This document shows positions 30,501 through 39,500 of a DNA stretch of 64,000 bases, piece after piece (position 1 is the stretch's first letter; each line of letters starts with the position of its first letter). The DNA lies in the NCBI RefSeq assembly GCF_044324785.1, contig NZ_CP172128.1. The stretch is one strand, 5' to 3'. A program made the position numbers. The stretch is from Escherichia coli. GTDB taxonomy: Bacteria > Pseudomonadota > Gammaproteobacteria > Enterobacterales > Enterobacteriaceae.

Positions 30501-33500
30501 CGAGCTGCCGGAGTTGCCAGACTGGCCTCCTGCAGACGTGGTTGTGGTGATGTGCCGGTACCGGGTGGTGAGGCATGTGAGCTTATCCCGGGAGCACCAG
30601 TGGTACCCCACATTGCAGCCGCCACTACCGGGGGGCGGGCGTCAGGATGCTGTGTGTTGATGCGGGCAAGCAGTTTTTGTAACGCTTCCCGCTGTTTTTC
30701 CCGGGCTGTTTGATCTGCCTGAGGGGGCGTTGATGGTTGACCAGAACCCTCGGCCTGGTCAGCAGGCTGAGTATCCCTTCTTTGATTATTTCCGTGATCA
30801 GTATCCAGTCCCCTGGGCAGACTGGCGATGAACGTCTGGTTATTACGTAACGCTTCTGCGGCCCCGCGCTCATTGTCAGCACGCAGTAAATCCCGGTAGT
30901 GCTGTGACTCCACCACGGTCCTCCCGCTGCCTGTTGTCGTGCTGTTGATATTGACTGACGAGAGCGATGCGCTGTTTTCGGGGGAAAGCCAGGTGAGCAG
31001 CAGGTATCCGCCCCCGATGATAATCACGCCCCCGAGAACCAGCAGGGCTGACAGTTTTTTGCCGGACTTTGCGGCTGTGTCCTGTTCTGTGCTCATGATT
31101 TACTCCAGTTCTGGGGTGACGTGAATGGACTGACCATTCACGGAGAAGGTGAGTAAGGGAGTCACCGGCAGTTTCCACAGACGTGTACCGTCAGCAGATG
31201 CCAGCGTCTGTTCAAATTCATCCCGCAGCATGGCCCGCGATCGCACGAGCAGATCATCGCCGTGCTGCCAGATGGTGGTGTCCGGAACATTTCCGGAGAA
31301 TTTCAGCCGACGCACGGTGGGATCATCGGGAGGAACACCGTCCAGAAAGGCCTGCAGGGTGGCATCATGCAGGGCAATCTTCTCTGATGGTACGGCTACC
31401 ACAGGACTGGCAGGTCCCTGACGGGGAATGCGCAGATCCAGACGGCTGTCGATTTCCTGACTCAGGGTATTGGTGTCGGTTTCACCACTGGTGATATTCA
31501 GAATGACCGGTACAGACAGTCCTTTGAGGTAGACCGTTACATTCCCTGCAGCCCAGGCGCGCAGGGGAGTGACGGAGACCATATTGCCGTTGAACTGCAC
31601 ATCAAAGTGACCGGGTGCCGCGTTATAAGGCGGATCCGACTGAGGCCACGGGGAGCCGTTGATGTCCGTGAACGTTACCACGCTGACGTTATGCAGTGCG
31701 GTTCGGACAAGCGGCAGACTGGCCCCGGGTGACAGATTTACCGTGAGGGAGCTGATACGGGGCACCACACTGGTGACAGGTGCGCTGATGGCCCGTTCGT
31801 TATCGGCCATTCGTTCCCGCAGTTCCCGAATTTCACCTGCATTCAGGGGGGAATCCAGTGATGCGGCTTCCTGAACAAGAGGAGAGGCAGGTGGCGGCAG
31901 GGGGCCTGTGAGTTGTGTGGCTGGCGGGGGGCCGCCTGCGGGGGCGCTCCCGGGAGTCTGTCCTGTCTTTCCGCCAGCCTGTGGGGTTCGTGCGTTCTGC
32001 CAGCCCGGGTTATCTGCAGCCGTGACAGTGCCGCACACAATAAGCAGTGCGCCAAGAAGATGATGTATTTGCATGATATGAGTCTCAGGTTCCTGATGCG
32101 GCGTTACGGGAAACCATCTGGCTGATTTCCATGCCGCCGGGTTTGATTCGTGGGTCAACGCGCCGGACAGTGATTTCAAAGATGAAGGCCTGCTCGGGGC
32201 GGGTGCTGGTCTGACCGACCAGACGCATCCTGACCGGATACTGGAATTTCCAGAACCAGATGCCGTTTTCCATCTGGCCCTGATTCACCAGCGTGCCGGC
32301 CCCGATGGTGGCTGTGAGGTTAAATTTCTCCTTTTTAATGGTGTCCAGAATGTTGGAGGCCTGAAGAGCATTCACATAGCCGGCAAAACCGGCTTCGGAA
32401 AAGCGGGGGGCCAGTGTCGTGATTTGTTTCCTGTAGTGGACAAAATCCAGATTAAAAGCTTCGCTCAGCGTCATGCTGCCAAACGTCATGACGTCGCTCT
32501 GACTCCAGGCTGGCTGACTGGTGGGGGCCAGGCGGACCAGCCGGCCATTGTCGGTGGCAAAGTATTCACGCGTTACGTTGCTGTTATGCCAGTACTGTAT
32601 GATATTGCCGGTCAGACTGATGACGAGAGCTGCGCTGCTACACAGCAAGGCCCTGACCAGTCCGGGAACCAGTGCGGCCCGTTGTTCTGACTGTGCAATG
32701 GTTCTGAGCACGGGGTTATAAATATCTCCGCTGTTATCCGCTTCCGGTGAGACAGGGGAGGTGGGTTGTGCTTCGCTCATGGTGCTCCTGTTCAGAGGTT
32801 ATAGTCTTTCCAGGGGTCGATATTCCCCGGCAGATGTTCATTCACCCGATCCACGACGGCATCACAGACCTGGTTTTCCAGGTCGCGGAGGAGTTTGTCC
32901 AGGCTGGGGAACTGCGGAAGAGTGATGCTGACGTCCTTGATGCGGGACAGGCAGGACTGCAGGGAAGAGGCGACGTCATTCTCCCGCTGTGACCATGCCT
33001 GGCTGGCTGTGCGCGCCCGCTCCCAGGCGGCTCTGCTGCCGGCTTCGGCAGCGGCCCCCGCCCGGCAGGTGGCGGCACCTGCCACCGGTGATGCCAGGGT
33101 GATGCCGGTCAGTATGACCAGCAGCGTTTTTTTCATGTTCATGGTCGTCCTTACCGGCTCATCGGCCGGGGCTGTGAGATTGTGCCTGTTGCAGAGTTTT
33201 TTCCTGCCTGTCCTCCGCCTTTTGGCTGTCAGACCATTCTTTCCAGGTCTGCTCAAAACCCAGAGAGCGGAAAAGCTTGTCCGGCTGCTCTTCCGGTTTG
33301 TGGATGGCGGCAAACAACGGGGAGTCCTGTTGCTTCAGGTGAAACTGCATCAACTGTGGGGCAGGACGCTTAGGGCCGTCCGCATCCCGGTTGATGGCCT
33401 CACCGTAACCGGCAAACTGAAGGCCCCTGTCGGTCATGGCGTTGATGACCAGCTGACGGCTGTCCGCTGTCGGGGTGGCCAGTGCCGGGTAAAGGGTGCC

Positions 33501-36500: not shown

Positions 36501-39500
36501 AATGCGGGCATCCTTCCCGCCGGTGACCGGAATACGCTGGTACGAACGTATTTCTCCCCGGCCGTTGCTGAAGGGAATAACCAGCTCATTTTTATTATTC
36601 AACCGCACGCCAGGCGCGGCCCGGATGCCCTTGCGCGTCAGGTATTCATGTGCTGTTGCCTGTGGCAACCCGTTAATATAGGAGCGGGCATAGCCGGCCT
36701 GTTTGTTATACTGTTGCTGCAGTTTACGTGCGTTATCATCGCGCTGTTGCTGAGCGAATGCCCGCAGATGCAGTCTTGCCAGAGGATCGTGTTGTTCTCC
36801 GCCGGAAAATACCCAGTTTGTGGGACTGTCATCGGCGCTCCGGTAGTCGCGGTACCAGCCGGCGGGACGACCATCAAGATAGGCCCTGTATGCGCCACTT
36901 TTGGCCCCTTTTTTGTCATCCCGGGTGGCCACTCTGTGTATGGCTCCGTCCATCTGTGGCAATCCCTGAATAACCAGCCCGGCGTTTTCCAGGACCTGAG
37001 CAAATTCAGTGACCGGATCGCCGGCATCCATCGACAGTTCCTGTGGCCGGGGTAACCAGCGCTCCAGCAGTGAAAGTTCGGTACCCGCCCGGGCATACCA
37101 GAGCTTTTTTTCTGGATCCCATGCGACAGCTTTGCGGCCATTTAACGGGGGAACTGCATTTTTTACGGCTTCTGTCTCCTCAGGCGGGACAGCAAGCCAG
37201 GTTCGATATCTGGACTTCATGTCGTTCTCCGGGGATTAAAGATGAGGGCGTTGTGATACGCCGGGATGATGGACAAAAGAGGGCTATTCTGGTCCGTGCC
37301 ATTCACGGGGTAATTCTGTGCGGTGTCGGTACCACCAGGGACGTCCTGATGCCTGCTTACCCTGAAGCAGGCTGTACAGACGTATACAGAGGGTGCGGAC
37401 TGTCCAGCCGGAATATCCCAGGAGCACAAAAAACAGCAGAATGCCGCTGCACACCCAGAATGTCGTTTTTGACGGATACGGAAACAGCAGCAGGTAAATC
37501 ATGGTAAACGGCAACGGGACACCATAAATATTCAGTGGCGGAGTGACATCCCGCCAGAAGCCTTCGCGTTTCATTTGGGGAATTCTCCGGCCGGGATGAA
37601 GAGCGCAGCTTCTGATGCCTCAATGCTGCCCGTCTGATACATGGTCAGAACCTGATCCCGTATCCGCCGTTTTTCCTTGCGAATGATTTCATCAATGTAA
37701 TGCCCCCATGTCGCATGGGACTGCCGGGAGAGCGTATCACGCAGTTCGTCAGTTATGACGATGTATTCCCGGACGGCCTGTCTGCCACCGTCATTTGTTC
37801 TGACCAGGACCTGCACCAGAATGAACTGCACCAGGGAAAGGGTGGCGGCTGCCATTGAATCCCTGATTTCCGGTGGAAATAACCCCAGCAGCCGGGCAAA
37901 GGTTTCACCGGGTGATTTGGTGTGCATGGTGCCGATGCAGAAGTGACCGGTGTTACCTGCCTGGACGGCTGCATCTGCCGTTTCATAATCCCTGATTTCA
38001 CCGATACCGATGATGTCCGGGTTACGGCGAACGGCAGAGCGAAGTCCTGCCGCAAAACTTTCCACATCACGCCCGATTTCGGCCTGATGGGGTGGCAGAA
38101 GGTCATTCTCTCCCCCCAGAATGTATTCCACCGGATCTTCATAGGTCACCGTTTTGCGGTCAGGGAAATGCGTCTGAATGTAGCGGTACAGTGCCGCTGC
38201 CAGTGTGGATTTACCGGAGCCGGTCTCTCCGCAGATGAAACCCAGACCGGTTTTCCGGAGCATGGCATCCAGCAGGTCCGGTTCAATATTCATGGTGAGG
38301 ATGTCCGGAATATCGGACGGGATCACCCGCATGGTGACGGAGATTACTTTTTCTTCTGTTGCTGATGTTCCCTGAATCAGGTGACAGCGCAGGCGAACAC
38401 GCTGCCCCCGTTGCAGACCGTAGCGACCGGAGGCATCACCGCTGACCTGAATGGTACGGTCCACGGGATGACCTGACAGAACCCGGGGAAGGACTTCCCG
38501 TCCAAACAATTCATCACTCAGCGCCATCATGATGGAGGACGGCAGAGGATGTGCGGACGAACGTACCCGCCGTCCAAAGCGACTGACAGATACCGGTGAG
38601 CCGCCTGTCAGATCGATATCACTGACGCGGTGTCGGGCACACCAGGCAAAAAAATAGCGAAACTCTTCGGCCGTGAAACGGGCGAAAGGGAATGTGCCGA
38701 ACTCATCGGGTAATTTCATCGGGGGCTCCTTCCGTGCTGACGACCGGACGCCAGCGTGATTTCTGCAGGGTGAATTCCGCGTGTGTCTTCAGACGGCGGA
38801 CGTGGTCTCCGGTGATGAGTTTCCTGCCGTTACCGGTGACGGTCTGCCGCTGTTCAGTCACATCCGGGCGTGTGATCATGCCCTGACGCCAGAGCAGGGC
38901 ATAAAGCATCATTCCCCGGTAATCCCGGGTCAGGCGTTTCTGGTTGGCTTCCAGGGTGAGGTCAGCGTTGTCACGGCCTTCCTGCCAGCCCTGGCGGAGT
39001 GCGTTTTCCCAGAGTCTGCGCTGTGCGCGGTCTTCCGGTACAACACGGCCCTCAGTTCCCGGGGTGGCGGTAGTGGAAAGCCCCCGCAGAAGCCAGTCAC
39101 GCCAGCCCGGCGGGTTACTGACAAAACGTTCGGGGCGCAGGATGGTCCAGACACGGGACGCGGTTCTTATCTGGTCAGGCTGAATGTGAGCAACATCCTG
39201 CGCTTCATCAATAACAGGGGGCAGCCAGCCTTCCCTGCTGATAAGGGGACGGAAGTCATACAGGGCATTCAGTGTACTTTCCCGGGCATTCAGTGCCTGA
39301 ATCAGTTCCCATGAGCGCTGTGCTTTTCCGCCACGGAATCCCAGCGTTCGTCCGGCGTCCGTGAGCATCTGGCGACGGGTGTCTGAAATGCCGTCATCCT
39401 GGTTGTCAGTGGGCGTCAGCCATGCCCGGAGATCCGGCGGTGGTAAATTGCCTGCCATACCGGCAGGGGGGCGATGGTGCTGTCCGGCACAGCCTGCCAG

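Follow-up and report, generated by a model that had tools for sequence, protein, structure and literature searches.

We analysed a stretch of 64,000 nt of Escherichia coli DNA (contig NZ_CP172128.1 of the RefSeq assembly GCF_044324785.1; the whole stretch is hereafter called the window) and, in particular, the open reading frame (ORF) located at positions 33159..37220 on the minus strand. By gene order and protein similarity this ORF is identified as sog of a conjugative plasmid of the IncK2/Z type (I-complex), orthologous to sog of R64 and ColIb-P9, and it codes for a putative SogL-type plasmid DNA primase. We consider it probable that the centre of this Sog protein is a disordered polyanionic region, which derives from old and by now fixed repeats and which would have the role of a tether or regulator. 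The gene itself is an ordinary, well-populated allele of a known gene of the classical Sog family, with RefSeq copies in the hundreds. I-complex plasmids are major carriers of resistance by extended-spectrum beta-lactamases and AmpC in E. coli of both poultry and humans and Sog belongs to the few proteins for which export via a conjugation system is known to reach hundreds of copies.

Identity of the gene and its acidic centre

The DNA of the window is 100% identical to pLH10-b-1-A (NZ_CP100531), a conjugative IncK2/Z plasmid with a mating pair formation system of type I (MPF_I), obtained from E. coli of Swiss poultry faeces, and it matches the final 64 kb of that record. As proposed by a previous reading of the window made from the sequence alone (hereafter, the sequence-only reading), the ORF on the minus strand gives a product of 1353 aa, with a gene length of 4062 nt, a mass of 147.9 kDa and a pI of 4.78. 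The gene order is traJ-traK-sog-traL-traM(DotI)-traN(DotH), so that sog is placed as in IncI1 plasmids and in R64. As a comparator standing for SogL/SogS of R64/ColIb-P9 we considered the IncI1 SogL of pN600 (1255 aa), to which the product aligned end to end in BLASTP with 1270 bits and 52% identity. This identity, the synteny with R64, the EGYATA motif and the LPD7 domain all agree with the Sog-type plasmid primase that had been proposed. RefSeq labels the protein as 'LPD7 domain-containing protein', while other depositors call it 'DNA primase' or 'SogL'.

The genes sogLS are needed for conjugation of I-complex plasmids (PMC10286972). SogL (1255 aa) and SogS, a shorter product (844 aa) that arises when translation reinitiates inside sog, are both transferred and are thought to coat single-stranded DNA (ssDNA) (PMC6112013); the export of Sog is independent of DNA and amounts to hundreds of copies (PMC8406263). 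Primase activity and transfer into the recipient are established for ColIb-P9/R64 only (PMC6112013, PMC8406263).

The alignment to IncI1 SogL is modular. Precisely, residues 1-405 (36006..37220; all the coordinates of features of sog are on the minus strand) are ~80% identical, including FAEGYATAAS, CADNDH and TDFND, and form the N-terminal primase module; residues 830-955 and 1031-1353 are well conserved; residues 406-830 and 956-1030 are essentially unalignable. The N-terminal primase domain and the conserved C-terminal domain that had been read from the sequence were hence recovered, the first through EGYATA and the ~80% identity over aa 1-405.

The central part that does not align (aa 406-830, 34731..36005) is an acidic low-complexity region, predicted to be disordered. 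It contains 87 acidic versus 24 basic residues, which gives a net charge of -63 (-0.15 per residue over 425 aa); the residues T/A/S/E/D/P/Q make up 73% of it and hydrophobics 12%. Between aa 430 and 790, where a T/A/E/D-rich region of low complexity had been noticed before, the composition (A 15%, T 15%, E 12%, S 9% and D 8%) is in accordance with that description. In an AlphaFold2 model of the predicted short form of the protein (from Met410, described below), built with a 34-sequence alignment, residues 410-829 had a predicted local distance difference test (pLDDT) score of 30-45 and no secondary structure, with the exception of one helix corresponding to the basic amphipathic motif SLFSRLRRFL (aa 762-771, 34908..34937). 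This motif is one of three short conserved islands inside the otherwise unalignable acidic region, together with the acidic-aromatic island YEDDYAAYASL (aa 443-453, 35862..35894), which is kept in close relatives, and DDWSAFAEDL (aa 614-623, 35352-35381), present also in IncI1-like and more distant relatives.

Repeat units, their age and their stability

The centre holds three full repeat units, found both by self-alignment and by a unit profile: U1 (aa 492-576, 35493..35747), U2 (aa 623-696, 35133..35354) and U3 (aa 697-767, 34920..35132). A degenerate or partial unit precedes them (aa 434-486, 35763..35921; aa 434-491 in a wider listing). The full units are ~66-85 aa long, being derived from old duplications of a unit of ~66-74 aa, and their pairwise amino acid identity is 48-58%, with z-scores of 16-19 relative to composition-preserving shuffles in Smith-Waterman alignments (z 5-10 for the degenerate unit). 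In a diagonal self-comparison with windows of 30 residues the scores reached 107 at an offset of 131 aa, 100 at 203 aa and 90 at 72 aa, to be compared with a shuffled maximum of 44.5 ± 6 for the centre. These diagonal scans and shuffled alignments replaced an initial self-BLASTP of Sog, in which no off-diagonal match was obtained. The unit profile, a hidden Markov model (HMM) for which 12 units from four alleles were used, matched the three full copies with independent E-values (i-E) of ~1e-33 and the degenerate copy with 1.5e-7. The sequence-only reading had reported at least three imperfect repeats at 34850-35930, and the units found here, spanning 34920-35921, support both the number and, nearly, the position.

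Two parts of the same description had to be corrected. The repeats had been considered as DNA blocks ~80% identical, while units aligned with gaps share 66-71% of their nucleotides; a nucleotide repeat search gave 62-72% identity over 164 nt, with 84-87% only in patches of 31 nt, and Tandem Repeats Finder (TRF) reported nothing over the repeat region, because the identity of the units falls under its range. Moreover, the array is not strictly tandem, since a non-repeat spacer of 46 aa (aa 577-622, 35355..35492), ending in DDWSAFAEDL, parts U1 from U2. We also considered this spacer as a possible decayed unit and rejected it (z ~0.5, unit HMM i-E 1.6). In the tail of U1 there is a shorter tandem duplication of 36 nt (DTREENASVATA) or 12 aa (DTGEEKASATTA), at 35520-35591.

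The IncI1 centre is 353 aa long, with a net charge of -57 and a composition as in the Sog of the window. Its self-similarity was not above that of shuffles (44 versus 40.7 ± 5.9) and the unit HMM gave no match on IncI1 SogL (best i-E 0.46). The unit repeats are, therefore, an expansion without a detectable copy in IncI1 SogL, which was one of the checks against R64-type Sog proposed by the sequence-only reading; this expansion is neither recent nor unstable. As judged from composition and alignment, the bulk properties of the IncI1 and IncK centres are conserved and their sequence is completely turned over. Overall, the Sog of the window and IncI1 SogL/SogS are alike in the position between traK and traL, in the order of the domains, in the ~80% identical primase, in the conserved LPD7 and C-terminal domains, in the equivalent internal start (Met410/Met412) and in composition, charge and predicted disorder of the centre. 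They differ in that the centre of the window protein is 72 aa longer, unalignable and provided with three and a half unit copies, and in that the Shine-Dalgarno (SD) sequence before its internal start is weaker. The Y-rich and DW islands also come in opposite orders, IncK and P0031 lineages having one order and IncI1 and P0040 lineages the other.

As regards the age of the repeats, the paralogous units have a synonymous divergence (dS) of 0.75-0.99 and a nonsynonymous divergence (dN) of 0.26-0.32, with a ratio dN/dS (omega) of 0.27-0.43, whereas the folded domains of IncI1 versus IncK have a dS of 1.2-1.9 and an omega of 0.14-0.16. On the basis of these dS values, the unit duplications are placed after the split from IncI1 and before the radiation of the IncB/O/K/Z alleles. 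The selection on the repeats is relaxed, yet clearly purifying: between alleles omega is 0.38-0.52 in the repeats and 0.10-0.29 in the folded domains (0.11-0.26 in the N-terminal primase module), and ~20 columns of the unit, LN.D…H…AET…EPA…V.Q…E.TAE.K..E…SA..T, are conserved at 90% or more over 12 units. The main targets of selection seem to be bulk properties (a length of ~350-425 aa, a net charge of ~-57 to -63 and few hydrophobics) and a few short conserved islands. Two long alternative-frame ORFs lie over sog, at 35103-35840 on the plus strand and at 35252-35812 on the minus strand; we set aside the idea of an overlapping gene because the selection is evident in the frame of sog.

To count the units in related plasmids we used a probe of 1401 nt spanning the centre against PLSDB (72,556 records), together with probes for deletion junctions. 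In fact, all that a word-indexed protein search with the centre recovered were partial fragments from E. coli/Shigella, without the full-length proteins, hence it was unfit for a length census. The probe matched 444 records, 345 of which had an identity of 95% or more over the centre. Among 46 rows sampled from this class, 44 spanned exactly 1401 nt, one was 9 nt shorter and one, frameshifted, was 1 nt shorter. A further 96 records hold a ~83%-identical allele, whose sole member read (L008) has three units. Three units appear to be kept in ~442 of the 444 PLSDB plasmids of this allele group, a number that extrapolates from a sample of 60 rows, from the alleles that were read and from two junction searches, with no count per record.

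The other two plasmids have each lost one unit. In pTB-nb2 (99% identical) exactly 216 nt are missing, with an in-register fusion of U2 and U3 at a 9-nt identical tract (TTCTGAACC); in pCFSAN083829_2, compared with its sister pCh101, 222 nt are missing at a 25-nt identical tract, and one unit is again lost in register. Junction-specific probes of 40 nt and 58 nt found each deletion junction in a single record among the 72,556. Slippage or recombination between units, as expected by the sequence-only reading, is thus documented by two in-register one-unit deletions, and it is rare. Its statement that length polymorphism is likely stood only as far as these two singletons go, against the extrapolated ~442 of 444 plasmids with three units. 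The linker cannot in practice be called variable, as it had been, because homologues share an identical repeat organisation, which the same reading had named as evidence to the contrary.

The other IncB/O/K/Z Sog proteins (pEB1, allele L009; pCh101, L006; pO111-110512_1, L008) have three units in the same positions and a centre with 83-100% nucleotide identity. Apart from the two singleton plasmids with two units, they differ in the 12-aa micro-repeat, present in the window allele and missing from L005-L007; we consider this micro-duplication a recent event. L005 is a mosaic, with a U1 similar to that of L006 and U2 and U3 similar to those of the window.

Given these data, it seems quite improbable that the linker is hypervariable, that is, that the repeats are a hot spot of slippage and recombination by which the number of units tunes the transport or the function of Sog. 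Such an explanation would account for the natural U2/U3 deletions at the tracts of 9 and 25 nt, for the gain or loss of the 12-aa micro-repeat and for the patchy similarity of units across alleles, which suggests conversion. However, the 66-71% identity of the units and the TRF result speak against it, as do the extrapolated census, with each deletion in a single record, and the paralogue dS of 0.75-1.0, from which it follows that the array has long been stable. Variable-number tandem repeats, or contingency repeats, would consist of near-identical head-to-tail units and would differ frequently in copy number among close relatives; the units found here are diverged and the differences are two singletons among 444 records.

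The chance that the repeat layout comes from a mis-assembly is practically negligible. Many draft assemblies hold only contigs of 1-1.6 kb from the middle of sog (P0001-P0029; some clusters have from dozens to >100 members), as an artefact in this part of the gene could produce. Nevertheless, the same 4062-nt gene with intact frame recurs in plasmids that were finished independently and number in the hundreds, the divergence of the units is too high for a collapse, and the ends of the draft contigs are off the unit borders. Co-resident alleles are one possible cause of this fragmentation.

Domain map, internal start and possible role of the centre

The primase module begins with a DUF5710 domain (aa 6-57, 37050..37205; Pfam PF18974, E 1.1e-8) and contains the EGYATA motif (aa 266-271, 36408-36425) and the Toprim-like acidic motifs CADNDH (aa 310-315) and TDFND (aa 352-356). 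Downstream from the centre there is the LPD7 domain (Pfam aa 853-937, 34410..34664; PF18821, E 2e-9), whose folded core in the AlphaFold2 model covers ~aa 830-941 with a pLDDT of 75-92. A second linker, rich in P/A/E and predicted to be disordered (aa 942-1034, 34119..34397; pLDDT below 50), separates it from two beta-rich C-terminal domains (aa 1039-1349, 33174..34106; pLDDT 71-95), which a fold search described as similar to the oligonucleotide/oligosaccharide-binding (OB) fold. The top structural matches of these domains are the OB-fold ssDNA binders RPA70, SSB and LEF-3, with weak scores, and no Pfam or NCBIfam family covers 33174-34106, in the C-terminal third of Sog. In the whole protein the Pfam scan detected DUF5710 and LPD7 only and no Toprim/primase domain; neither the NCBIfam scan of three Sog segments nor a search of PDB sequences with complete Sog as query gave any match. 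The Toprim family PF13362 is, however, precomputed on homologous fragments.

At the boundary between primase and centre there is an in-frame ATG (Met410, 35991..35993), aligned with Met412 of R64, which is taken as the start of SogS because of the SogS length of 844 aa. This codon is the SogS-like internal start for which the sequence-only reading had suggested to look. A SogS-like product of 944 aa (33159-35993, 102.6 kDa, pI 4.55), with the acidic region as its N-terminus, is predicted from it. Seven alleles have ATG at this codon and one (L008) has GTG and, in a motif-anchored listing, a Met at this boundary is present in 31 of 37 family representatives, often after E-E/N-x-T, whose codons resemble an SD sequence. 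Before Met410 the SD sequence is weak (GAGAAG, -2.7 kcal/mol, versus -6.1 for IncI1 and -6.6 for the start of sogL). The analysis thus provides a clean domain map, in which the primase is followed by the internal start, the disordered acidic centre and its islands, LPD7 and the OB-like domains.

To evaluate the distribution of the acidic centre, aa 831-1353 were compared exhaustively by phmmer with 1.84 billion representatives, which gave 221 relatives. All of the 37 members read that have both primase and LPD7 also have a net-negative centre (-12 to -66), with a length of 148-770 aa. Strong internal repeats of another kind occur in about 10 of these 37, with periods of 14-110 aa and sequences unrelated to the window unit, such as the 33-aa unit PETNAADNTAAEPAPAAETATTDVADTPAPAGE, present six times in P0103, and the 30-aa units of P0074; the unit of the window was found only in the IncB/O/K/Z branch. 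P0103 and P0074, although 30-32% identical, have the same synteny, DotD-TraI-TraJ-IcmT-[sog]-TraL-DotI-DotH. Similarly, Pri of the IncM plasmid pCTX-M3 and the metagenomic Sog-like proteins P0031-P0165 share with the window protein the primase, the acidic low-complexity centre, the LPD7 and the C-terminal domains (PMC6112013), as well as the Met at the boundary between primase and centre; they differ in the length of the centre (148-770 aa) and in the repeats, which, where present, are unrelated and have periods of 14-110 aa. In the predicted proteins P0033, P0044, P0046, P0057 and P0061 the primase domain appears to be missing and an acidic start is followed by LPD7 and C-terminal domains, so that these relatives resemble a stand-alone SogS. 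Our literature search found no publication on the repeat architecture of Sog or on a family-wide acidic centre with lineage-specific repeats, and nothing relevant on LPD7; we regard this pattern, seen among the family members read, as an incremental observation.

One explanation for such a region would be that of a tolerated spacer, a harmless disordered acidic filler whose repeats are fossil duplications devoid of function, and we consider it unlikely. In agreement with it, the IncI1 and IncK centres are unalignable (~41% nucleotide identity), the dN/dS of the centre is 0.38-0.54 versus 0.10-0.29 in the folded domains, and the repeats vary freely among lineages. On the other hand, dN/dS is well under 1 whether alleles or paralogous units are compared, charge and length are kept between IncI1 and IncK despite the complete turnover of sequence, the conserved islands (DDW..F.E(D/E)L, the Y-D/E-rich one and the basic helix) are embedded in the region, and the region is present in every family member read.

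The role that we favour is that the acidic centre would be a flexible polyanionic tether or regulator, located at the front of the Sog polypeptides that are transferred. By its charge it may hold back the putative ssDNA-binding module of the C-terminus, and keep it in solution, until ssDNA is met, and it may supply an unfolded segment suited to the type IVB-like secretion system of IncI plasmids, while the islands YEDDYAAY, DDWSAFAEDL and SLFSRLRRFL could act as partner-binding motifs. The acidic tails of SSB, T7 gp2.5 and T4 gp32 restrain their ssDNA-binding module in this way until ssDNA is available. As in those proteins, a polyanionic segment predicted to be disordered would be joined to putative OB-type ssDNA-binding domains, and the acidic-aromatic islands DDWSAF and YEDDY of Sog recall the tip of SSB. 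Unlike those tails, the Sog centre is 10-40 times longer, N-terminal to the binding module and repeated, and the OB assignment is weak.

Some points weigh against the tether or regulator role and the architecture on which it builds. The function is suggested by analogy. The assignment of the primase derives from homology to SogL and from motifs, with no match in the domain scans. The short form is only predicted, because the internal SD sequence is weak in this allele. Finally, the purifying selection on the sequence of the units (omega ~0.3-0.4) argues for something beyond bulk charge.

Another possible function is that of a multivalent export signal, in which the Glu/Asp-rich centre, with the repeated core AET..SEPA..QPVQQ..E.TAEDK, would be bound by TrbA, the DotM-like subunit of the IncI coupling complex; we consider it unlikely. 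The window does encode TrbA (9134-10396, minus strand) with the C-terminal cytoplasmic domain of DotM (PF23127, E 3.8e-47), and DotM binds the Glu-rich signals of Dot/Icm substrates in Legionella (PMC8740702; bioRxiv 10.1101/754762). Moreover, the three loci read (window, P0103 and P0074) are inside operons of the MPF_I or type IVB-like kind, the acidic centre is found in 37 members out of 37, the core of the unit is under purifying selection, and the export of hundreds of Sog copies in the absence of DNA (PMC8406263) would be accounted for. However, the known Glu-rich signals of type IVB systems (E-block) are located in the last ~30 residues of the substrate, while the Sog repeats lie well inside the protein (aa 434-767 of 1353); a more conventional candidate is the conserved charged C-terminal tail of Sog (…SQKAEDRQEKTLQQAQSHSPGR), and IncI1 Sog is exported without these repeats. 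Likewise unlikely is the further step by which the centre of Sog-family proteins would be a long internal multivalent Glu-rich signal read by DotM-type subunits (here TrbA) of type IVB coupling complexes, with repeat amplification tuning the avidity and, through it, the copy number of export. If this were true, plasmids would set the number of primase/SSB copies delivered into recipients via lineage-specific amplification of repeats.

Very improbable, in our evaluation, is a DNA mimic or anti-restriction decoy, in which the polyanion would titrate nucleases or restriction enzymes of the recipient in the manner of Ocr and ArdA. DNA mimicry, like a modulation of transport, had been raised as a possibility by the sequence-only reading, and both are speculative. 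The DNA mimics known so far have a rigid fold on which the charges are patterned, while the centre of Sog is predicted to be fully disordered (pLDDT 30-45) and offers no folded scaffold. The charge density of -0.15 per residue over 425 aa and the early entry of Sog into the recipient (PMC8406263, PMC6112013) would be suited to such a decoy; nevertheless, I-complex plasmids already have ardA (PMC10286972), and no homology to any mimic was found, the PDB sequence search being empty.

Returning to the tether or regulator role, the acidic centre is universal among the members read and its sequence and repeats are lineage-specific; therefore, charge, length and the three motifs are to be preferred as targets over the number of repeats.

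Mosaic alleles and other features of the window

The sog gene of the window is itself a mosaic, in which an N-terminus and a centre of the L009 type (34131-37220) are joined to a C-terminal domain of the L006 type (33159-34130). Precisely, the N-terminus and the centre are 99.1% and 97.3% identical to those of pEB1, an IncI-gamma/K1 plasmid, while the C-terminal domain (aa 1031-1353) has 99.8% nucleotide identity to that of the IncK2/Z plasmid pCh101 and 79.8% to that of pEB1. From this mosaic it follows that two types of C-terminal domain (~80% identical in nucleotides, dN ~0.16) circulate and reassort.

In the transfer operon, between traT and a traU-like gene of ~1018 aa, there is an IS66-family element (tnpA/tnpB, with fragmented transposase ORFs) accompanied by two small hypothetical ORFs, at ~23530-27045. 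Downstream of trbA-trbB, an ORF of 757 aa (5759-8032, minus strand), omitted by the PLSDB gene table, which is incomplete, lies where trbC, the gene of the DotL-type coupling protein, would be expected. In an IS-rich stretch adjoining the transfer region, astA, the gene of the heat-stable enterotoxin EAST1, is predicted at 4978-5091 on the plus strand. Finally, a flotillin-family gene and a neighbouring 'OB-fold-containing' gene (59245-61586, minus strand) are located between the pil cluster and the traBC regulators.

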